Shown in pieces: positions 24 through 63,378 of a stretch of 64,000 nucleotides of DNA (its first letter is position 1; each line of letters opens with the position of its first letter). Source of the stretch: Minisyncoccota bacterium (GTDB taxonomy: Bacteria; Patescibacteriota; Minisyncoccia; Phycocordibacterales; UBA9973); NCBI GenBank assembly GCA_035353995.1, contig DAOQAL010000001.1, forward strand, positions 70,867 through 134,866. The letters run 5' to 3'. Position numbers and translations under genes: made by a program. The notes under the pieces are model-generated. The model was not told where the DNA came from and did not search any database. It worked only from the letters and a program-made list of their open reading frames with translations.

Positions 24-95
24 GCACCCGTAGTGAAATGGATATCATACCTGCCTTCGAAGCAGTTGTTGGGGGTTCGAATCCCTCCGGGTGCA
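24..95 (+). tRNA. tRNA-Arg (anticodon TCG)
   Basis: Hand-folded cloverleaf. Acceptor GCACCCG/CGGGTGC; T-arm GGGGG-TTCGAAT-CCCTC; anticodon loop CTTCGAA gives TCG; discriminator A; no encoded CCA. Confidence 0.85.
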
Positions 96-344
96 CATAC
101 AGAGTAAAATTTTATTTTTTGTCCTTTAAGAAAAAGAAGCATTAATAAATATACACTTTTTAACCAAAACTGTGGATAACTATGTTAACAATGTTTATAA
201 AGGACATCAAAAATTATTGTCTTTTAATCCAAATTTCTTAAAAATATGTTGTTAAATAAGGATATTTTATAAAAGACAGCATTTTTTATCAAATTGTTTC
301 ACGTGAAACGGTTTAGAGTATGTTATTCATGAAACTTATTCAAA

Positions 345-3216: not shown

Positions 3217-5172
3217 ATGGAAGAACACTTAAAAGGACTAAATAGTGCCCAAAGAGAAGCGGCAATCCACAAAAATGGACCTCTTCTTATTGTAGCTGGA
3301 GCTGGAGCCGGAAAAACAAAGACAATAACACATAGAATAGTGAATTTAATAAAAGAGGGCATTATGCCAGAAAAAATATTAGCTGTAACATTTACAAATA
3401 AAGCAGCAAAGGAAATGAAAGAAAGGGTTATTAAAGAAATAGAAAAAAATGCAAAAGAACAAAGTACTAGCCCATTTATATCAACATTCCACTCTTTAGG
3501 AGTCTATATAATAAAAGAAAATGCACAAATGTTAGGTCTTACGAAGCATTTTACTATTTTGGACGAAAACGATACTACTAGTTTAATAAAAGAGAGCATA
3601 AAAGAACTTGGTTTTGACCCAAAACAATACGATCCACGAAAAATAAAAAATATTATCAGCAGAGAAAAAGGAAAATTTACTAGATTACCTGAATATCAAG
3701 AAAAGGAAAATAATTCTTTTGGAAGAATTGTTGGACAAGTTTGGAGTCTTTATGAAAAGAAAAAAACAAAAGAGAATTCGCTTGATTTTGATGATTTACT
3801 TTTAAAAGCTGTAAAACTTTTAAAAGAAAATGAAGAAATAAAAAAGATTTACCAAAATAAATGGGAATATATTCATATTGATGAATATCAAGATACAAAT
3901 GAAGTGCAATATTTAATGTCACGTCTTCTTTCAGAAAAAAATAAAAATATTTGTGTAGTTGGGGATGCTGATCAAAATATTTATTCTTGGCGTGGAGCAA
4001 ATTTAAAAAATATTTTAAGTTTTGAAAAAGATTATCCTAATGCAAAAATAGTTCTACTTGAAGAAAATTATCGTTCTACTCAAAATATTCTAGAAGCTGC
4101 AAACGAGATAATTAAAAAAAATATTTATCGCCCAGAAAAAAACTTATTTACAAAAAATGAAGCTGGAGAAAAAATTTCTCTTTATGAAGCTATTGATGAA
4201 ACAGACGAAGCAGAATTTGTAGCAACAAAAGTTTTAGAAATTCTAGATCAAGTAGGAAACTTTCCTAATAAACCTGAAAAAGATTTTCCAGATATTGCAA
4301 TTTTATATCGCGCAAATTTCCAATCTAGAGCATTAGAAGAAGCAATGTTGCGATATACCATTCCATATCAAGTTCTTGGCATAAAATTTTTTGAAAGAAA
4401 AGAAATAAAAGATACTCTTGCATATCTTCGAGCTGCTCTTAACCCAGAGAGCTTGTCAGACATAAAAAGAATAATAAATTTTCCTACAAGAGGAATTGGA
4501 AAAGTAACTTTGTTAAAAATTTTCGCCGGACAAAAAGATAATTTGCCAGTAAAAATGAAAATCAAAATAGATAATTTTTATAAAACACTAGAAGAAATAG
4601 GAGAAAAAATAAAAAAAGAAAAAGCATCGGATATAATAAAATTTGTTGTAAAAAAATCAGGCATTGAAATGGAATTACAAAATGGAACTGCTGAAGACCT
4701 AGAAAGACTTGAAAATATAAAGGAATTAGCTACATTAGCAATTAAATATGATGGATTAGAAAATGGTGAAGGTATTGAAAAACTTTTAGAAGACGCATCA
4801 CTATCATCAGACCAAGATAGCTTGATGATTACAGAAAATAAAAAAGAAAACAAATCTGCAATAAAATTAATGACAGTACATGCATCGAAAGGATTAGAAT
4901 TTGAGTATGTATTTATTACTGGTTTAGAAGATGGGCTTTTTCCACACCAAAAAGAAAATAATAGCGAAGCAGAAGACAGAGAAGAAGAACGCAGGCTTTT
5001 CTATGTTGCACTTACTCGTGCAAAGAAAAAATTATTTTTATCTTTCGCAAACTATCGTACAATTTTTGGCTCACGACAAATAAATGCTCCATCTGAATTT
5101 ATAAACGACATACCAAAAGATTTAATAGAAAAGGGGGACGAGGACCCAAGAATAAAAACAATTTATATATGA
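3217..5172 (+). CDS. pcrA: UvrD/PcrA/Rep-type superfamily-1 DNA helicase
   Basis: Walker A AGAGAGKTKTITHR, DEYQDTN motif, VGDADQNIYSWRGA, and C-terminal helicase motifs (VALTRAKKKL). Confidence 0.85.
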   Translation: MEEHLKGLNSAQREAAIHKNGPLLIVAGAGAGKTKTITHRIVNLIKEGIMPEKILAVTFTNKAAKEMKERVIKEIEKNAKEQSTSPFISTFHSLGVYIIKENAQMLGLTKHFTILDENDTTSLIKESIKELGFDPKQYDPRKIKNIISREKGKFTRLPEYQEKENNSFGRIVGQVWSLYEKKKTKENSLDFDDLLLKAVKLLKENEEIKKIYQNKWEYIHIDEYQDTNEVQYLMSRLLSEKNKNICVVGDADQNIYSWRGANLKNILSFEKDYPNAKIVLLEENYRSTQNILEAANEIIKKNIYRPEKNLFTKNEAGEKISLYEAIDETDEAEFVATKVLEILDQVGNFPNKPEKDFPDIAILYRANFQSRALEEAMLRYTIPYQVLGIKFFERKEIKDTLAYLRAALNPESLSDIKRIINFPTRGIGKVTLLKIFAGQKDNLPVKMKIKIDNFYKTLEEIGEKIKKEKASDIIKFVVKKSGIEMELQNGTAEDLERLENIKELATLAIKYDGLENGEGIEKLLEDASLSSDQDSLMITENKKENKSAIKLMTVHASKGLEFEYVFITGLEDGLFPHQKENNSEAEDREEERRLFYVALTRAKKKLFLSFANYRTIFGSRQINAPSEFINDIPKDLIEKGDEDPRIKTIYI

Positions 5173-5969
5173 TACATAAAGCAAAAAAATCTTTGGGACA
5201 AAATTTTTTAAAGTCTGAAACAATTTTAAAAAAGGTTGTTGAGACGGGAGAAATATCTGAAAATGATATCGTTTTAGAAATTGGACCTGGTAAAGGAACT
5301 TTGACAAAAAAACTTTTGGAAAAAGCAAAAATCGTTATTGCAATAGAAAAAGATCGTGAACTTTTTTCTTTCTTGCAAGAAAAATTTAAAAGCGAAATCT
5401 CTGAAAAGAAATTAATTCTTATCGAGGACGACATTTTAAAATTTGAAGCAGATAAAATTTTTTCAGATTCATCACAAAAATTTTGTAATCCATTAAACTA
5501 CAAAATTATTGCAAATATTCCATACAATATTACTGGAGCAATTTTAAAAAAATTTTTGGAAAATAAAAATCAACCAAGCATGATGGTACTAATGGTACAG
5601 CATGAAGTAGCGAGAAGAATCGTCGCAAACGATGGGAAAGAAAGTATTCTTTCTATCTCTGTCAAAGCCTATGGCACACCAAAACTTATTACAAAAGTTC
5701 CAGCACGGTATTTTTCTCCAGCACCAAAAGTTGATTCAGCAATAATATTAATAAAAAATATTTCAAAAAACTTTTTTACAAAAAATAAGATAGGAGAAGA
5801 AAGATTTTGGGAATTAGTTCGTACTGGTTTTGCTCATAAAAGAAAAAAACTTTCATCAAATTTGAAAAAAAATTCTAAAATAGACTTAGAAAAACTAGGT
5901 AATAAAAGAGCCGAAAACTTATCACTAGAAGATTGGAAAAATTTAATTAATTCTAAAAACTTTAATTAG
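5169..5969 (+). CDS. ksgA: 16S rRNA (adenine1518/1519-N6)-dimethyltransferase KsgA/RsmA
   Basis: SLGQNFL, EIGPGKGTLT and NIPYNIT motifs. Overlaps the helicase stop by 4 nt. Confidence 0.9.
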   Translation: MIHKAKKSLGQNFLKSETILKKVVETGEISENDIVLEIGPGKGTLTKKLLEKAKIVIAIEKDRELFSFLQEKFKSEISEKKLILIEDDILKFEADKIFSDSSQKFCNPLNYKIIANIPYNITGAILKKFLENKNQPSMMVLMVQHEVARRIVANDGKESILSISVKAYGTPKLITKVPARYFSPAPKVDSAIILIKNISKNFFTKNKIGEERFWELVRTGFAHKRKKLSSNLKKNSKIDLEKLGNKRAENLSLEDWKNLINSKNFN

Positions 5970-6384
5970 TACCAAACATACCAATAGTACCTTTAGTAAT
6001 AGGAAGCTCTGTACAAGGATCTCCAGTTATTAAACATTCACCACCTTGTGAATATTTACCAAGAATTACAGATCCTCCAGGAATCCCTGTCCCTGCTCTC
6101 TTCTCTGAGGCAGAAGAATAGAGATATGTTCCACTATAATCTGACGGACCAGTAACAGTTACTTGATAGCCATCACTACAAGTACAAGACTGAGTTGATA
6201 CTATCCTACCGCCAAACATAGAAAGTTCAGCACTTGTAGCAAAAACAATAGAAAAAGTAAATATTACTGTAAAAATTAAAATTACTACTAAAAAAATTCC
6301 CAAAATTTTATTTTTAAAAATACTTTCCATAAAAATATTATAGCATAAAAAATAAATCAATGATAGAATACTAATATTATGCAC
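5962..6384 (-). CDS. Small membrane-anchored Cys-containing protein, divergent from the T4SS-like operon
   Basis: Hydrophobic N-terminus (ILGIFLVVILIFTVIFTFSIVFA) followed by about 90 aa containing 5 Cys. The true start is probably the internal MESIF. Confidence 0.4.
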   Translation of the reverse strand: MHNISILSLIYFLCYNIFMESIFKNKILGIFLVVILIFTVIFTFSIVFATSAELSMFGGRIVSTQSCTCSDGYQVTVTGPSDYSGTYLYSSASEKRAGTGIPGGSVILGKYSQGGECLITGDPCTELPITKGTIGMFGTN

Positions 6385-7320
6385 CTTGATGATAATTACA
6401 AAAAATATCTACCGAGTAAAAAGTTTGCTTATTCAATAGCTTCACTGCTTGCATGTGGTTTAATTGTTTTTTTAATTGCAAATTTACTTTCAAGTAAAAA
6501 TAGTTTTTTCTCTTCTAAAAAAGAAACCAAAATAAGTTTAGAAAACATGACAACAAATGAATTAATAACTCTTGATTCAGATGGAGACAGTATTCCAGAT
6601 TGGGAAGAAGCATTATGGGGAACAGATCCAAAAAATAAAAAAACATTTGATAATATTAATGACTCAGAATATATAGAAAATAAAAAAATAGAAAATGGTA
6701 TAAAACCATCCGAAGATGATGGAACTTTAACAGAAACTGATAAATTTGCTAGAGAATTTTTTGCTACTTATATGGCAATGAAAACAACTGGACAGATAGA
6801 TGATAAGGCTATTACTGAATTCTCAACAGCATTAGGGCAAAATATAGCTGAAAATTCTGTTATCGATGAATATTCAAAAGAAAATATACAAATTACAAAA
6901 AGTGATACAGCAGAAGACCAAAAAAGCTATTATATTAAAGCTGGAAGCCTATTTGAACAATATAAAGAAAAAGGAATAGGAGGTGAACTTCAAATAACTG
7001 CAGCTATAGCAAACTCTAGAGAATCTAGTGATATAGAAAAATCGGAAAATTATCTATTAGAAATTTCTAATGCATATCAAGAATTTGCAAAAAAATTGGT
7101 TAATGTACCAGTGCCAGAAAGTTTGACTGATTATCATCTTCAAATAATTAATAATGCAAACAATACAGGAATTTCTATTATTAATATGGCAAAAATTATT
7201 TCAGATCCAATTGTTGGAGTCTCTGGACTTTCTCAATATCAAAAATATAGTAATTCATTAGTAGAATCTGTGGAAAGTTTAGAGAGTTTTTTATCAAAAA
7301 ATGGTATAATACCCGAGTAG
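6379..7320 (+). CDS. Signal-anchored secreted protein with a thrombospondin-type-3-like Ca-binding motif; first gene of the T4SS-like operon
   Basis: N-terminal TM segment (FAYSIASLLACGLIVFLIANLL). DSDGDSIPDWEE at nt 6574-6609 matches a DxDxDGxxDxxE calcium-binding loop. Confidence 0.6.
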   Translation: MHLDDNYKKYLPSKKFAYSIASLLACGLIVFLIANLLSSKNSFFSSKKETKISLENMTTNELITLDSDGDSIPDWEEALWGTDPKNKKTFDNINDSEYIENKKIENGIKPSEDDGTLTETDKFAREFFATYMAMKTTGQIDDKAITEFSTALGQNIAENSVIDEYSKENIQITKSDTAEDQKSYYIKAGSLFEQYKEKGIGGELQITAAIANSRESSDIEKSENYLLEISNAYQEFAKKLVNVPVPESLTDYHLQIINNANNTGISIINMAKIISDPIVGVSGLSQYQKYSNSLVESVESLESFLSKNGIIPE

Positions 7321-39133: not shown

Positions 39134-39781
39134 ATGATATACCTTTTTGCTGGTGATGACGTAAAAAACAAAATTGAGAACTATGAAATTTTTTTAGAGT
39201 CTCTTAAAAAAGAAATGGAGATCTTTTTTGTTAATAAAAATAATTTTGATCCTATTCAAATTGAAAGTTTTTATTCTGGTAGTGGTTTATTTTTTTCCAA
39301 ATGTGTGATTGTTTTTACAAATATATTTGAAAAAGAAGAAATACAAAATTTTGTTTTAGAAAAATTGTCTTTTTTTGGTGAATCACAAAATTTATTTATT
39401 TTTTCTGAAGGCAAATTAAACAAGACAACTATTGATGCTTTTAAAAAAGCTAGAGCAGAATTAAATATATTTGAATTACCAAAATATAAAAAAGAAAAAT
39501 ATAATAGTTTTCTTTTGGCAAATGCTTTTGAAGCAAAAGATAAAATCAAACTCTGGATTTATTTTAGACAAGCAATTGATCTTGATGTAGCAATGGAAGA
39601 ATTGGCCGGAATCCTTTCTTGGAAGGTGAAAGATATGATCTTAAAAAGAAACTTTAGTAAGTTTAAAGAAGAAGAATTACAGAATTTTTCTTCTAAACTT
39701 TCATATTTATTACCTGAAGCTAGACGCAATGGAATAGATGCAGAATCAGCGTTCGAACAGTTTCTACTTGAAGCTTTTTAA
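39134..39781 (+). CDS. Possible DNA polymerase III delta subunit (short HolA-like)
   Basis: MIYLFAGDDVKNKIENYEIFL resembles the HolA N-terminus. Position after polA. Weak call. Confidence 0.4.
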   Translation: MIYLFAGDDVKNKIENYEIFLESLKKEMEIFFVNKNNFDPIQIESFYSGSGLFFSKCVIVFTNIFEKEEIQNFVLEKLSFFGESQNLFIFSEGKLNKTTIDAFKKARAELNIFELPKYKKEKYNSFLLANAFEAKDKIKLWIYFRQAIDLDVAMEELAGILSWKVKDMILKRNFSKFKEEELQNFSSKLSYLLPEARRNGIDAESAFEQFLLEAF

Positions 39782-39804
39782 AAAAAATGTTAATTTAAGA
39801 GAAT

Positions 39805-39880
39805 CCGCCCTTAGCTCAGCTGGTAGAGCTGCTCCCTTTTAAGGAGAAGGTCGCAGGTTCGATTCCTGCAGGGCGGACCA
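39805..39880 (+). tRNA. tRNA-Lys (anticodon TTT), CCA encoded
   Basis: 76 nt. Acceptor CCGCCCT/AGGGCGG with an unusual C1:G72 pair. D-arm GCTCAGCTGGTAGAGC; anticodon loop CTTTTAA; T-arm GCAGG-TTCGATT-CCTGC; discriminator A followed by CCA. Confidence 0.85.
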
Positions 39881-39884
39881 CGTT

Positions 39885-39924
39885 AAGAAAAATCCTCCCT
39901 GCGGAGGATTTTTTAGTGGTCCGA
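39885..39924. repeat. 40-bp perfect direct repeat, copy 1 (contains terminator hairpin)
   Basis: AAGAAAAATCCTCCCTGCGGAGGATTTTTTAGTGGTCCGA. Identical copy at 40372-40411. Confidence 0.8.
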
Positions 39925-40007
39925 AATGGGGATTAAACTTATTGACAAGGTACTGTATAAAAGGTAATCTAAAAAAAGATTTGTATAAATTTTAAAAACA
40001 TATATAT

Positions 40008-40271
40008 ATGGAAAAAACAAATTGGCAAATTCATCCCGCTGATTTTTATTGGGAAATCTCTGATAAATTGTCATATGTAAAAATGTTTTTTTGTAGTCGT
40101 TTGAGGTTGTTTTTGTATCGCTTTTATATTTGTAACGATGAATTCCATCATTCTTTGAGTACAGATATTGAAGCATTGATGACAATGAATGACAAACAAA
40201 AAGCAAAATATATGGCTTATTTAGACAGAAAAAAAATAATTGCCCATGAAAGAGAATCTAAAGCGGTTTAA
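40008..40271 (+). CDS. Hypothetical 87-aa protein inside the repeat-flanked cassette
   Basis: The only sizeable ORF between the two 40-bp repeats. An overlapping antisense ORF (39913-40206) also exists, so coding status is uncertain. Confidence 0.3.
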   Translation: MEKTNWQIHPADFYWEISDKLSYVKMFFCSRLRLFLYRFYICNDEFHHSLSTDIEALMTMNDKQKAKYMAYLDRKKIIAHERESKAV

Positions 40272-40371
40272 CTAACAAATGACCATTTCTTTGTTAAAAA
40301 GGAGTGGCCATTTTTCTTTCTATAATACCCTATAAACATCAATTGATTATATAATTCTCTCAAATACAACA

Positions 40372-40411
40372 AAGAAAAATCCTCCCTGCGGAGGATTTTT
40401 TAGTGGTCCGA
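40372..40411. repeat. 40-bp perfect direct repeat, copy 2
   Basis: Identical to 39885-39924. Flanking sequence diverges immediately on both sides. Confidence 0.8.
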
Positions 40412-40466
40412 GCCGGAGCAGGTTTTTATGAAAAGTTTTGTTTTATTGGTATGATATAATTTTAAT

Positions 40467-43025
40467 ATGGAAAATAATACAAATACAGTTAAGTATCAGG
40501 GTGTTTCACAAATAGAAGCTGATGAGATTCTTAAAAAAGACGGTTTTAATGAACTCCCTTCACAAAAAAAGAAGAATAGCTTAATAATTTTATTAAAAAT
40601 TATGTCAGAGCCAATGCTTTTATTGCTAGTTGGAGCTGGTGTAATTTATTTATTCTTAGGTGAAATAAGAGATGCTCTTTTGCTTGTGTTTTCTGTAATT
40701 GTTGTTATTGGTATAACTTTCTACCAGGAAAAAAAGACTGAGAGGACGTTAGAAGCATTGAAAGATTTATCTAGCCCAAGAGCTTTAGTCTTTAGAGATG
40801 GAGAACAAAAAAGAATTGCAGGTAAAGAAGTTGTTAAAGGTGACATAATAATAATTCACGAAGGTGACAGAATACCTGCTGATGCGACAATTTTATCTTG
40901 TGAAAATCTTTCAGTTGATGAATCTTTATTAACCGGTGAATCCATTCCTGTAAGAAAAACAGAATGGAGCAAAGATGAAAAACAACCAAGACCAGGAGGA
41001 GATGATTTACCTTTTGTATTTTCAAGTACTTTAGTTGTAGATGGTCGTGGTGTTGCAAGAGTAAGTTCTACTGGACCAAATACAGAAATTGGTAAAATTG
41101 GAAAAAGTCTTGAGAAAATTAAAGATGAAGATACGCTTTTACATAAAGAAACAAAAAAAATTGTTCGCTCTGTTGCTCTTGTTGGGATAGTTTTGTGTAT
41201 TATTGTTGTTTTATTTTATGTTTTTGTAAAAGGAAATATAATGGGTGGTTTTCTAGCTGGAATAACATTAAGTATGGCTATTCTTCCAGAAGAATTTCCT
41301 GTTGTACTTTTAGTTTTTTTAACATTAGGAGCATGGAGAATTTCAAAAAGGAAAGTTCTTACAAGAAGATCAGCTGCTATTGAAACATTAGGAGCTGCAA
41401 CTGTTCTTTGCACGGATAAAACTGGTACTTTAACTTTAAATAAAATGGAATTGGTTAATTTATATGCTGGTGGTTTATTTTACGATATTGATTCTTCTTC
41501 TAACAAAAATGAAATGCCTGAACAGTTTAAAACTCTTTTAGAATATGGAATTTTAGCTAGTCAGAAAGACCCATTTGATCCTATTGAAAAAGAATTAAAA
41601 AAATTTGGCAATACACATGTTGAAAGAGTAAAAGATTTACAAAATAATTTTGATCTTACAAAAGAATATCCTTTATCAAAAAAATTATTAGCATTGTCTC
41701 ATGTTTGGCAATCAAAAGATAAGAAAGAATTTATTATTGCATCTAAAGGAGCGCCAGAAGCAATTTTAGAATTATGTCATTCAAGTGATGAACAGAAAAA
41801 AGAAATTTTAAAAAAGGTAAAAGAAATGTCAGAAAAAGGTTTGCGTGTTCTTGGTGTTGCAAAAGGTGCAGTTGTTGGCAACTCTCTTTCAGATAATCAG
41901 CACGATTTTGATTTTGAATTTATTGGTCTTCTTGGTTTTGTTGATCCTGTTCGTCAAACAGTACCTACTGCTGTTGCTGAAGCTTATGAAGCTGGTATGA
42001 GAGTGATAATGATTACAGGAGATTATCCTGGAACTGCTCAATTTGTAGCAGAAAAAATAGGTATTAAAAATTACAAAGAATATTTAACTGGAGAAGATTT
42101 AGCAAAGATGAGTCATTTAGAGCTCAAAGAAAAAATAAAATCAGTAAATATTTTTGCAAGAGTTGTGCCTGAGCAAAAATTGCTTATCATTGATGCTTTG
42201 AAAGCAAACAATGAAATTGTTGCTATGACAGGTGATGGTGTAAACGATGCTCCTGCACTTAAATCTGCTCATATAGGTGTGGCTATGGGCGAAAGAGGGA
42301 CAGATGTTGCAAGAGAAGCCTCAGCCCTTGTTTTGCTTAATGATGATTTTTCTTCAATAGTTTCCGCTGTTCGTTTAGGAAGAAGAATTTATGACAATAT
42401 AAAAAGATCAATGGGATATTTATTAGCAGTTCATGTTCCTATCGCTGGTATGTCTTTATTACCTTTAATTTTTGATTTTCCAATTGTATTATTGCCTGCA
42501 CACGTTGCGTTTTTGGAATTAATTATTGACCCTGCTTGTTCAATAGCATTTGAATCAGAGAATGAAGAAAAAAATATAATGAAAAGACCACCGAGAAATT
42601 TGCATGAACCAATGTTTAATAGAAAAACAATTGGAATTAGTGTAATTCAAGGATTATCAATATTGATAGCAACTTTTGTTTTGTATTTTATCGCTGTTAA
42701 AACTGGTAGAAGTGAGCAAGAAATAAGATCATTTGCTTTTGTGTCATTAGTTTTCTCTAATTTAATGCTTATAGCCATTAACTTATCTTGGGATAAGAGT
42801 TTACATAGAATACTTATGTCAGCAAATAGAATTTTATTTATTATTTTAATTGGTGCTATTCTTTGTTTGCTAGCCGTACTTTATGTGCCATTTTTCTCTA
42901 ATCTATTTCATATGGCCCCATTACGTATAATGGATATAGGATTTATTGTTTTGATTGTGTTTATAAGTTTATTTTGGTTTGAATTGTTTAAATTATTTAA
43001 AATTAAAAAACTAAAGACATTATAA
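40467..43025 (+). CDS. P-type cation-transporting ATPase (P2-type, Ca2+/cation pump-like)
   Basis: Phosphorylation motif CTDKTGTLT, TGES, hinge TGDGVNDAPALK, and 10 predicted TM helices. Confidence 0.9.
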   Translation: MENNTNTVKYQGVSQIEADEILKKDGFNELPSQKKKNSLIILLKIMSEPMLLLLVGAGVIYLFLGEIRDALLLVFSVIVVIGITFYQEKKTERTLEALKDLSSPRALVFRDGEQKRIAGKEVVKGDIIIIHEGDRIPADATILSCENLSVDESLLTGESIPVRKTEWSKDEKQPRPGGDDLPFVFSSTLVVDGRGVARVSSTGPNTEIGKIGKSLEKIKDEDTLLHKETKKIVRSVALVGIVLCIIVVLFYVFVKGNIMGGFLAGITLSMAILPEEFPVVLLVFLTLGAWRISKRKVLTRRSAAIETLGAATVLCTDKTGTLTLNKMELVNLYAGGLFYDIDSSSNKNEMPEQFKTLLEYGILASQKDPFDPIEKELKKFGNTHVERVKDLQNNFDLTKEYPLSKKLLALSHVWQSKDKKEFIIASKGAPEAILELCHSSDEQKKEILKKVKEMSEKGLRVLGVAKGAVVGNSLSDNQHDFDFEFIGLLGFVDPVRQTVPTAVAEAYEAGMRVIMITGDYPGTAQFVAEKIGIKNYKEYLTGEDLAKMSHLELKEKIKSVNIFARVVPEQKLLIIDALKANNEIVAMTGDGVNDAPALKSAHIGVAMGERGTDVAREASALVLLNDDFSSIVSAVRLGRRIYDNIKRSMGYLLAVHVPIAGMSLLPLIFDFPIVLLPAHVAFLELIIDPACSIAFESENEEKNIMKRPPRNLHEPMFNRKTIGISVIQGLSILIATFVLYFIAVKTGRSEQEIRSFAFVSLVFSNLMLIAINLSWDKSLHRILMSANRILFIILIGAILCLLAVLYVPFFSNLFHMAPLRIMDIGFIVLIVFISLFWFELFKLFKIKKLKTL

Positions 43026-43030
43026 TTTTT

Positions 43031-43501
43031 ATGAAAGAGTCTATTTTAATTCTTCCTGATATAAGAAGTGCTCAAAACGTAGGAGCAATTTTTAGAACAG
43101 CTGAAGCTGCAGGTATTTCAAAGATTTATTTAACAGGATATACTCCTTGCCCAATCGATAAATTCAATAGAGCAAGAAAAGATATTGCAAAAGCTTCTCT
43201 TGGTGCAGAAATTTATGTTCCTTGGGAATATAAAAAATCAATAATTCCTCTTTTGTCTATTTTGAAAAAGAAAAATTATAAAATAATTGCTATTGAACAA
43301 GATAAAAATTCTACTGATTACAAAAAAATAAAAATAGGGAATAAAAATGCATTTATTGTCGGAACAGAAGTGTCTGGTCTTGATAAAAAAGTTCTTAAAA
43401 AATGTGATGTAATTGCTGAAATACCAATGAATGGCAAAAAAGAATCACTGAATGTTTCAGTGGCTCTTGGAATTGGGCTATTTAGAATTTTAAATATTTA
43501 A
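43031..43501 (+). CDS. SpoU/TrmH-class RNA 2'-O-methyltransferase
   Basis: 156 aa. Motifs NVGAIFRTAEAAG and IPMNGKKESLNVSVA. Confidence 0.75.
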   Translation: MKESILILPDIRSAQNVGAIFRTAEAAGISKIYLTGYTPCPIDKFNRARKDIAKASLGAEIYVPWEYKKSIIPLLSILKKKNYKIIAIEQDKNSTDYKKIKIGNKNAFIVGTEVSGLDKKVLKKCDVIAEIPMNGKKESLNVSVALGIGLFRILNI

Positions 43502-63088: not shown

Positions 63089-63161
63089 GGTGCCTATAGT
63101 GTAATGGTTAGCACTAGGGTTTGTGGAACCCTCAGTCAGAGTTCGAATCTCTGTAGGCACC
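63089..63161 (+). tRNA. tRNA-His (anticodon GTG) with encoded G-1
   Basis: G-1 at 63089. Acceptor GTGCCTA/TAGGCAC. Anticodon stem AGGGT/ACCCT, loop TTGTGGA. Discriminator C73. Confidence 0.85.
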
Positions 63162-63378
63162 CAGCAGTCAGCGACTAAAGAATAGACCGGTAAGGTATAG
63201 GTTTTTCTAGATTCATCAAAAATCTGGTTCTAGACCTTTTAGGTTCAAAATTCGATAATATTCTTTATTATCAACTTAAAAATCAAAAATTCAAAAGTTC
63301 TAATCTCTAGAGGTCGGGATTACTAGGTGTCCTGAAAGGGTCGAGTGTTTTATTGGTAAGTTTTGATATAATAAACTT

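Follow-up and report, generated by a model that had tools for sequence, protein, structure and literature searches.

A one-gene cassette between perfect 40-bp direct repeats behind a tRNA-Lys gene of a Minisyncoccota bacterium

Organization of the tRNA-Lys locus

We analyzed a stretch of 64,000 nucleotides from a Minisyncoccota bacterium (assembly GCA_035353995.1, contig DAOQAL010000001.1, positions 70,867 to 134,866), which is called the window below. Directly behind one of its tRNA genes, a short segment with a single gene, here termed the cassette, lies between two perfect 40-bp direct repeats. Coordinates are those of the window, and the features of the tRNA-Lys locus for which they are given lie on the + strand. 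The local gene order is TsaE, PolA, a PEMT-like protein, a 215-aa holA-like protein, tRNA-Lys, repeat copy 1, an open reading frame (ORF) of 87 amino acids (ORF87), repeat copy 2, a P-type cation ATPase, a SpoU-type methylase, RuvA (minus strand) and S20. The tRNA-Lys(UUU) gene, with its encoded CCA end, occupies 39805-39880 (ARAGORN; 67.8 bits with the Rfam tRNA model). Four nucleotides, CGTT (39881-39884), separate the CCA from the first copy of the exact 40-mer AAGAAAAATCCTCCCTGCGGAGGATTTTTTAGTGGTCCGA (copy 1, 39885-39924). The same sequence returns in the same orientation at 40372-40411 (copy 2), and the 447 bp of unique sequence between the two copies (39925-40371) form the cassette body, with a GC content of 27% versus 30.5% for the window. 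An initial annotation of the window, made from the letters alone, had placed the repeats at exactly these coordinates, 4 nt past the CCA. It had also judged a 40-nt repeat to be far beyond chance and had described an immediate divergence outside both copies. The present analysis bears out both statements: 0 such pairs are expected on the basis of 100 shuffles, and in an alignment the similarity stops at once beyond both ends of the repeat, the outer flanks being unrelated. The 40-mer is the sole long exact repeat of the window, in which no third match was found at up to three mismatches.

Within copy 1, a 12-bp stem (39887-39898 paired with 39903-39914) carries a CTGC loop and has an A run on one side and a T run on the other, after which the repeat ends in AGTGGTCCGA. 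The terminator-like hairpin with this loop that the initial annotation had pointed out is thus real; its stem, however, is longer than had been described, and it appears terminator-like in both directions, as judged from a terminator scan for the minus strand (with T6) and from a fold of about -20 kcal/mol for the + strand. With a GC-containing stem-loop followed by a T run, it has the features of a Rho-independent terminator, and we predict that it acts as one.

The cassette encodes a member of a conserved protein family

The inserted segment reads as an intact promoter-gene-terminator unit. It starts with a promoter-like site, TTGACA-17 nt-TAATCT (39942-39970), which is the single match to this pattern in the window and which is kept, along with the 5' untranslated region (UTR), on L003, a contig with an ORF87 homolog; its role as a promoter is a prediction. 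ORF87 follows at 40008-40271, then a cassette-borne terminator-like hairpin with a T run (40283-40319), found by the terminator scan. The last element is motif X, ATAAACAT..TTGATTATATAA..CTCTCA (40313-40366), which has no second match in the window and is homologous to a stretch upstream of the ORF87 homolog on L003.

The initial annotation had considered the 87-aa ORF as dubious. This has to be revised, since the profile search placed it in a family of 335 clusters at E<=1e-3, 63 of them at E<=1e-10. Its members range from 56-211 aa in length, with RLYIRKDEFHxSLxxD...RRRxIAH as a common motif, and the ORF87 profile gave 59 hits. Compared with the homolog on L003, which is 74% identical, the nucleotide changes are distributed 7/11/19 over the three codon positions and are thus concentrated at the third, with 12 synonymous and 18 non-synonymous codon differences in 69 codons. 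The AlphaFold2 model consists of three helices, with a pLDDT of 81.7. Because of the family of clusters, the profile hits, the third-position bias and this model, ORF87 is a real gene, a member of a conserved and uncharacterized family of small helical proteins. No relatives were found by sequence in Pfam or in the PDB, and the predicted structure gave no fold match in the PDB. Neither a blastn search of plasmids nor a tblastn search of phages with ORF87 yielded a match.

The segment was also considered as a known non-coding RNA, a possibility ruled out by an Rfam search that yielded the tRNA only. At permissive thresholds, Rfam gave no known RNA family at this locus or on two further contigs introduced below (L010 and L011), but only tRNA and sub-threshold noise.

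Single copies elsewhere define a tRNA trailer module

To look for other copies of the repeat, the 28-nt core of the 40-mer was scanned against 241 million metagenome records. Matches were obtained on two other contigs only, L010 and L011, with one copy each, directly 3' of a tRNA in both cases; viral contigs contained neither the 40-mer nor its core. With two copies in the window and two on other metagenome contigs, the 40-mer is not the many-copy generic terminator or repetitive extragenic palindromic (REP) element that the initial annotation had named as a possible refutation. L010 reads, behind tRNA-Ile(UAU), ...GCGGACTA-CGTT-TAGAAAAATCC...GGTCCGA-GCCGGAGCC, followed by a convergent gene. 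L011, which comes from a different Paceibacterota metagenome-assembled genome (MAG; WCX46_ locus tags) and whose GyrA falls in a separate 90% cluster, reads ...GGCGGACCA-CGTT-TAGAAAAATCC...GGTCCGA-GGCGCAG behind tRNA-Lys(CUU). Each of these copies is 39/40 identical to the 40-mer of the window.

It is the borders of these single copies that are most informative. On the left they have the CGTT that precedes copy 1 in the window. On the right they have the sequence of the copy 2 side, where GCCGGAGC (40412-40419) follows the repeat in the window: L010 carries the same GCCGGAGC, and L011 has GGCGCAG at this place. L010 positions 726-772 and window positions 40373-40419 match at 47/47. Since the single copies are bordered by the outer flanks of both window copies, the uninterrupted unit is tRNA-C(C/T)A-CGTT-40mer-GCCGGAGC. 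The window therefore carries this trailer module with 487 bp inserted and 40 nt duplicated. Part of what the initial annotation had proposed, a small inserted element that duplicated the tRNA-adjacent terminator, thereby gains support from L010 and L011; the other part, a decayed footprint, does not agree with the intact promoter-gene-terminator unit. The empty site that it had suggested looking for, a single repeat behind the tRNA, was likewise found behind other tRNAs but not in the nearest relatives, which have no 40-mer at tRNA-Lys.

The 40-mer appears to form the central part of a conserved, roughly 52-nt module that starts straight after the discriminator base of the tRNA and is laid out as C(C/T)A-CGTT-[12-bp bidirectional terminator hairpin-AGTGGTCCGA]-GCCGGAGC. 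This starting point follows from the distribution of the encoded CCA, which tracks the presence of the module. Among the ten tRNA genes of the window (24-96 ... 63090-63162), only the tRNA-Lys with the module encodes CCA, and the other nine stop at the discriminator base. The same holds for one of the three tRNA genes of L011 (160-888), again the one bearing the module. The tRNA-Ile of L010 has CTA in the CCA position, and the tRNA-Lys genes of module-less relatives are without an encoded CCA.

A second property of the module concerns the tRNA itself. The octamer GTGGTCCG (39916-39923, within copy 1) is complementary to CGGACCAC (39874-39881), i.e. the 3' end of the tRNA plus one base. Pairing of the tRNA 3' end with the tail of the 40-mer, as a CGGACCAC/GUGGUCCG helix, lengthens the terminator hairpin, so that the helix reaches about 20 bp in both RNA and DNA folds. 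The z-score of this extended helix is -4.5 as RNA and about -6 as DNA (range -4.5 to -6.5). L010 has CGGACUAC instead, with a C-to-U change, and the pairing is kept by a G-U pair. Copy 2 has no upstream pairing partner comparable to the tRNA 3' end. According to the folds, the trailer module can lock the tRNA 3' end into a long helix, which points to a possible part in tRNA 3' processing or target recognition. We also considered the 40-mer tail (TGGTCCGA...) as an inverted tRNA 3' fragment or as a second, convergent tRNA. This idea was rejected, as ARAGORN found none and the T-arm did not fit, and only the 8-nt complementarity between the 40-mer and the tRNA 3' end was retained.

These properties could mean that the whole of CCA-CGTT-40mer-cassette-40mer-GCCGGAGC moves as a composite element which inserts after the discriminator base of a tRNA, L010 and L011 then being solo footprints comparable to solo long terminal repeats. 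Such a single mobility process would cover both the identity of the module across genomes and the presence of the cassette. The module does start right at the discriminator base and supplies the CCA, its outer borders CGTT and GCCGGAGC are common to three different tRNAs, and the complementarity of GTGGTCCG to the tRNA 3' end could aid the recognition of a target. However, neither an enzyme nor a known mechanism for insertion after N73 is at hand, only one filled and two solo sites are available, and no other cargo was seen between 40-mer pairs. The complementarity amounts to just 8 nt and may belong to a terminator or processing structure. On balance, we regard the composite element as rather unlikely.

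Further observations were made on the two contigs with single copies. A second insertion at the same point of the module was envisaged for L011, but in the alignment its GGCGCAG is possibly just a diverged GCCGGAG, and we do not make this claim. L010 contains a stand-alone GIY-YIG nuclease ORF (406-645, 78 aa, Pfam 5.7e-15) that ends 3 nt 5' of the module-bearing tRNA-Ile. Past the trailer module of L011, between two tRNA genes, there is a GC-rich stretch (540-760) with reiterated short motifs (ACGAGCCGGG / ACGAGCCGAG / ACGAGCTGGGG, and TGTGATGACAA / TGTGACGACAA three to four times), for which Rfam gave no match.

The locus in relatives

ORF87 was found in the same gene order on 10 contigs from several sources, 4 in the 50-200 kb and 6 in the 0.2-1 Mb size class. 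An identical holA is present on 10 long contigs, all of them with ORF87, and on one short contig that stops inside the tRNA. These contigs bear on the possibility of an assembly artefact, in which the 40-bp repeat would have caused a mis-join or the collapse of a strain bubble during metagenome assembly. The source is indeed a MAG, and short-k Logan contigs break near tRNA-Lys. Yet the recurrence of the gene order on all 10 contigs, together with a repeat spacing of 487 bp that read pairs can span, makes an artefact extremely improbable, and the Logan breaks fall within the tRNA, where they are explained by the tRNA-Lys k-mers of other species and not by the 40-mer. Three independent short-read (Logan) contigs, L005, L006 and L013, stop inside or at tRNA-Lys, which is consistent with tRNA k-mers common to co-occurring Paceibacterota. 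It also follows that variation 3' of tRNA-Lys is systematically under-assembled.

Beyond the species, the nearest holA homologs are at most 73% identical, so that a near-isogenic comparison is impossible. Four relatives lack the 40-mer at their holA-tRNA-Lys locus. On L017, the tRNA-Lys (no CCA; GGGCGGACA) directly abuts the ATG of SpoU; on L002, a uracil-DNA glycosylase gene lies between tRNA-Lys and SpoU; L008 and L009 have different genes in this interval. The P-type ATPase is missing from the locus on L002, L009 and L017. An arrangement duplicated in all relatives, with which the initial annotation would have been refuted, is not what is seen: in the nearest relatives, with holA identities of up to 73%, both the 40-mer and the cassette are missing from this locus. 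As relatives sharing the synteny lack them, the state of the window is derived, and we consider the 40-mer, ORF87 and the ATPase to be, on present comparisons, derived features of the window lineage. Across L002, L003, L008, L009 and L017, the interval contains nothing, uracil-DNA glycosylase, a cupin with five small ORFs, PRK with a PG-binding protein, or ORF82 with a 151-aa protein. ORF87 and the ATPase take this place in the window (39781-43031). The holA-tRNA-Lys-SpoU interval is thus a variable hot spot.

The gene could nevertheless be an old resident of this interval. A tandem duplication or gene conversion, local and without any mobility, could have placed the tRNA terminator downstream of it, the 40-mer being a bidirectional terminator that was reused. 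This alternative had been mentioned in the initial annotation and has points in its favor: the 40-mer is a good predicted intrinsic terminator on both strands, L003 has its ORF87 homolog in the same general interval upstream of SpoU, and the GC content of the cassette, 27%, is host-like. On the other hand, the borders are sharp with dissimilar flanks, the outer flanks of both copies rebuild a module that is contiguous elsewhere, and the cassette has a terminator already. In addition, other family members are bracketed by repeats of unrelated sequence (see below), and relatives with up to 73% holA identity do not have the gene at the locus. We therefore disfavor a local event and hold it to be quite improbable.

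It may be mentioned that degenerate fragments resembling a tRNA 5' half (e.g. ACCGCCCGTAACTCAGTTGTAGCGG) occur just upstream of the intact tRNA-Lys on L006 (5680-5755), L017 (3680-3712) and L011 (345-372), and that the window has none. These may be scars of past recombination at tRNA-Lys.

ORF87 homologs in other contexts

A counterpart of the cassette is found on L003, where promoter, 5' UTR and ORF are 77% identical to the window over 322 nt (blastn, E 3e-63). Motif X is conserved there as well (43/55 identical, E 2e-7), but at another place: the order on L003 is X, then a different terminator-like hairpin, then promoter and ORF, so that X is located upstream, unlike in the window. If the window cassette is circularized via its repeat, it reads X-hairpin-promoter-ORF and becomes collinear with L003. 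This collinearity fits a circular intermediate.

Other members of the family are also found with short direct repeats. On L024, from a cluster whose NCBI member is named Candidatus Staskawiczbacteria, a 37-nt direct repeat (92% identity, promoter sequence; 3914-3950 and 4390-4426, spacing 476 nt) brackets an ORF87-family gene, and this first insert has a GC content of 44.6% versus 33% for the locus (surroundings 25-35%). The next gene lies between 19-nt exact repeats made up of 5' UTR and start codon (4427-4445 and 4889-4907). L024 thus shows two neighboring insertions, each within a short direct repeat of host regulatory sequence. On L012, a 48-nt direct repeat with a spacing of 498 nt surrounds an ORF87 homolog, and the repeat is part of an intergenic element of about 140 nt. 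This element is present three times on L012 (144-1432), five times on L015 (4440-8082), and also upstream of the homolog on L023 (3886-4016). L012, L015 and L016 carry arrays in which consecutive, unrelated genes of the same orientation are parted by the element; these genes include an ORF87 homolog, an AAA kinase with DUF4440, a 159-aa protein, NYN and an S51 peptidase. The element comprises a box TCGAACATyCTCCCAAGTnCGGAGCC, a terminator-like hairpin, a second box GTAGAAGTTCGAACCTA and a promoter ATTGAC-N17-GTAATGT, and in some copies the first box is split by a 30-nt insertion. To judge from their layout, the arrays look like cassette arrays, with no integrase in view. Two candidate links were tried and discarded. 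An attC-like fold was sought for the 140-nt element, and folding gave a central terminator-like hairpin only. A likeness by eye between this element and the borders of the window cassette was followed up with an nhmmer profile, which found nothing in the window at E<=10 and L003 only at E 0.65.

A different setting is that of L013 (1-6867), with a reverse transcriptase (RVT_1), an S49/NfeD-like peptidase, an ORF87 homolog, three small ORFs and a tyrosine integrase (5723-6652). The homolog is about 1.5 kb from this Phage_integrase gene, behind which the contig ends with the partial 3' half of a tRNA-Lys(CUU), starting from the anticodon loop (6838-6867). This layout is att-like and could be that of a Paceibacterota integrative element. 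It raises the possibility that the window locus is what deletions left of a larger tyrosine-integrase island at tRNA-Lys, with ORF87 between attL and attR, the 40-mer as the att core or part of it, and the ATPase possibly also as cargo. A tRNA-adjacent site with flanking direct repeats would agree with such an island, as would a holA-tRNA-Lys-SpoU hot spot whose cargo differs from relative to relative. The details of the window do not. The repeat is without any tRNA sequence, as it starts 4 nt past the CCA, and no second copy of the tRNA-Lys 3' end (GGGCGGACCACGTT) was found in the window at up to three mismatches. The Pfam matches of neighboring genes reveal no integrase or resolvase over about 6 kb to the left and right, nor does the cassette itself encode one, and a crude motif screen, which is a weak test, found no recombinase motifs in the six-frame translation of the whole window. 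Deletions would have to stop exactly at both 40-mers and yet spare the whole promoter-gene-terminator unit, and a repeat identity of 100% is unlike an old, decayed element. Classical integration at a tRNA att site, which the initial annotation had cited as background, is thus not demonstrated here, and the remnant of an integrase island seems improbable to us.

Proposed mechanism of insertion

Our preferred explanation, to which we give a probability of about 0.5, is a single reciprocal crossover of the Campbell type. A circular cassette with one 40-mer, which is itself a conjecture, would meet the chromosomal 40-mer 3' of tRNA-Lys, and one reciprocal crossover would place the 447-bp one-gene cassette inside the module with a perfect 40-mer on either side. 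Recombination between both copies would excise the cassette and restore the module. The model predicts an empty site reading ...GGGCGGACCA-CGTT-40mer-GCCGGAGCAGG... and a circle junction reading ...CTCTCAAATACAACA-40mer-AATGGGGATTAAACTT... (X-ACAACA-40mer-AATGGGG). Two kinds of enzyme could be involved: the host's homologous recombination machinery, working on a 40-bp stretch, or a trans-acting site-specific recombinase with the hairpin site as its target. The junctions coincide exactly with the ends of the shared 40 nt; this, together with outer flanks that rebuild the contiguous module, makes a single crossover the best explanation. The repeats that flank family members differ from case to case in sequence and in kind (terminator, promoter, 5' UTR, intergenic element), and for this reason we tend to favor joining driven by homology over a single dedicated att site.

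Several points weigh against the crossover explanation. With 40 bp, the homology comes close to the minimum for RecA-type recombination. The crossover alone leaves the 39/40 identity of the module behind different tRNAs unexplained, and the conservation of the module rests on n=3 sites (window, L010 and L011). Among the 10 long contigs with identical holA, there was no empty site, circular form or polymorphism within the species. The absence of an integrase or resolvase gene in or around the cassette belongs on the same side. Finally, the X-hairpin of L003 may alternatively be the 3' module of a preceding upstream cassette in an array, in which case no circle is needed.

A broader and more speculative scheme, which we put forward with little confidence, is an undescribed route by which Paceibacterota and other bacteria of the Candidate Phyla Radiation (CPR) may move single genes without a cassette-borne integrase. 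Small cassettes made up of promoter, gene and terminator, among which the ORF87 family would recur as cargo, would jump from one short conserved regulatory sequence to another (terminator hairpins, promoters or intergenic repeats) and duplicate 20-50 nt each time. The 52-nt module would itself be mobile, attaching after the discriminator base, bringing the CCA and pairing with the tRNA 3' end.

The genomes of CPR bacteria are tiny and streamlined and contain few recognized mobile elements, and gene gain and loss in these bacteria is poorly understood. The locus described here is a clean example of a one-gene insertion with an exact 40-bp duplication in a conserved tRNA trailer; neither the cassette nor the DNA within about 6 kb of it contains a recombinase gene. 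The pattern recurs, in that members of the same small-protein family are found with short direct repeats or in repeat-separated arrays. Should a general route of recombination lie behind it, variable hot spots like holA-tRNA-Lys-SpoU would find an explanation, and recent gene gain in MAGs could be spotted by a sequence signature. If it was merely one homologous-recombination event, the locus is an ordinary but tidy case.

Comparison with known systems

With tRNA-targeting integrative elements, the locus shares an insertion just 3' of a tRNA, exact direct repeats and an uninterrupted site elsewhere, and a relative of its cargo gene, on L013, is about 1.5 kb from an integrase and near a tRNA-Lys fragment. 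It differs in its size of 447 bp, its single gene, the absence of a nearby integrase, and a repeat that is without tRNA sequence and has no second tRNA 3' end. In those elements the att core includes the tRNA 3' end, whereas the window repeat starts at 39885, beyond it. Sites with a single repeat do exist on L010 and L011, though at other tRNAs and on other contigs.

In its size of about 0.5 kb and its single ORF between copies of an imperfect-palindrome site, the cassette resembles the gene cassettes of integrons, which measure about 0.5-1 kb between recombination sites (the circle being conjectural in our case). The arrays of unrelated genes parted by a repeated intergenic element, found in the relatives, are reminiscent of them as well. 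By inspection, however, neither the R''/L''/L'/R' layout nor a pair of RYYYAAC...GTTRRRY cores is present in the 40-mer: its GTTAAGA is on the wrong (5') side of the hairpin, and no complementary RYYYAAC partner is found at copy 2. The window cassette has a promoter-like site and a terminator, whereas integron cassettes are usually promoterless, and the site is a tRNA trailer and not attI. Neither IntI nor attI was found in the 64-kb window, on the basis of the Pfam matches near the locus and the weak motif screen.

Integrative mobile elements exploiting XerCD/dif (IMEX) and the pdif modules of Acinetobacter plasmids resemble the cassette in being small and recombinase-less, with a short palindromic site on either side. 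The 40-mer hairpin can be read as 10-bp arms with a 6-bp center (10-6-10 versus 11-6-11 for dif). By eye, it does not resemble the dif sequences of E. coli and B. subtilis, and its position after tRNA genes on three contigs, not at the replication terminus, argues against dif.

Campbell-type integration, as known from suicide plasmids, gives the same product geometry, with the shared homology duplicated around the insert. It needs no element-encoded enzyme and suits the unrelated repeats around other family members. The difference is that the homology in the window is just 40 bp, and we know of no natural source of circular cassettes in these bacteria. Palindrome-associated transposable elements (PATEs) derived from IS200/IS605, and REP sequences, also combine hairpins near both ends in one orientation with the lack of terminal inverted repeats and of a transposase. 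Empty sites of PATEs are, however, without a hairpin, whereas the single-copy sites of L010 and L011 retain the whole hairpin and the same outer flanks. REP sequences occur many times per genome, in contrast to the low-copy 40-mer (2 in 64 kb, and 2 contigs in 241 million records). By analogy, the arrangement would have its closest functional parallels in Campbell-type insertion and in recombinase-less modules of the IMEX or pdif kind. It fails the tests that define a tRNA-att integrase island, an integron cassette or a REP/PATE.

The adjacent P-type ATPase gene

Outside the cassette, the gene that follows copy 2 encodes a P-type cation ATPase of 852 aa (40452-43025 with its -10 element; Pfam E1-E2_ATPase, 9.6e-43). 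Its putative extended -10 element, TGATATAAT (40452-40460), ends 6 nt upstream of the ATG, and the ATPase mRNA would therefore be leaderless or almost so. The stop codon of the ATPase gene is 5 nt from the start codon of SpoU.

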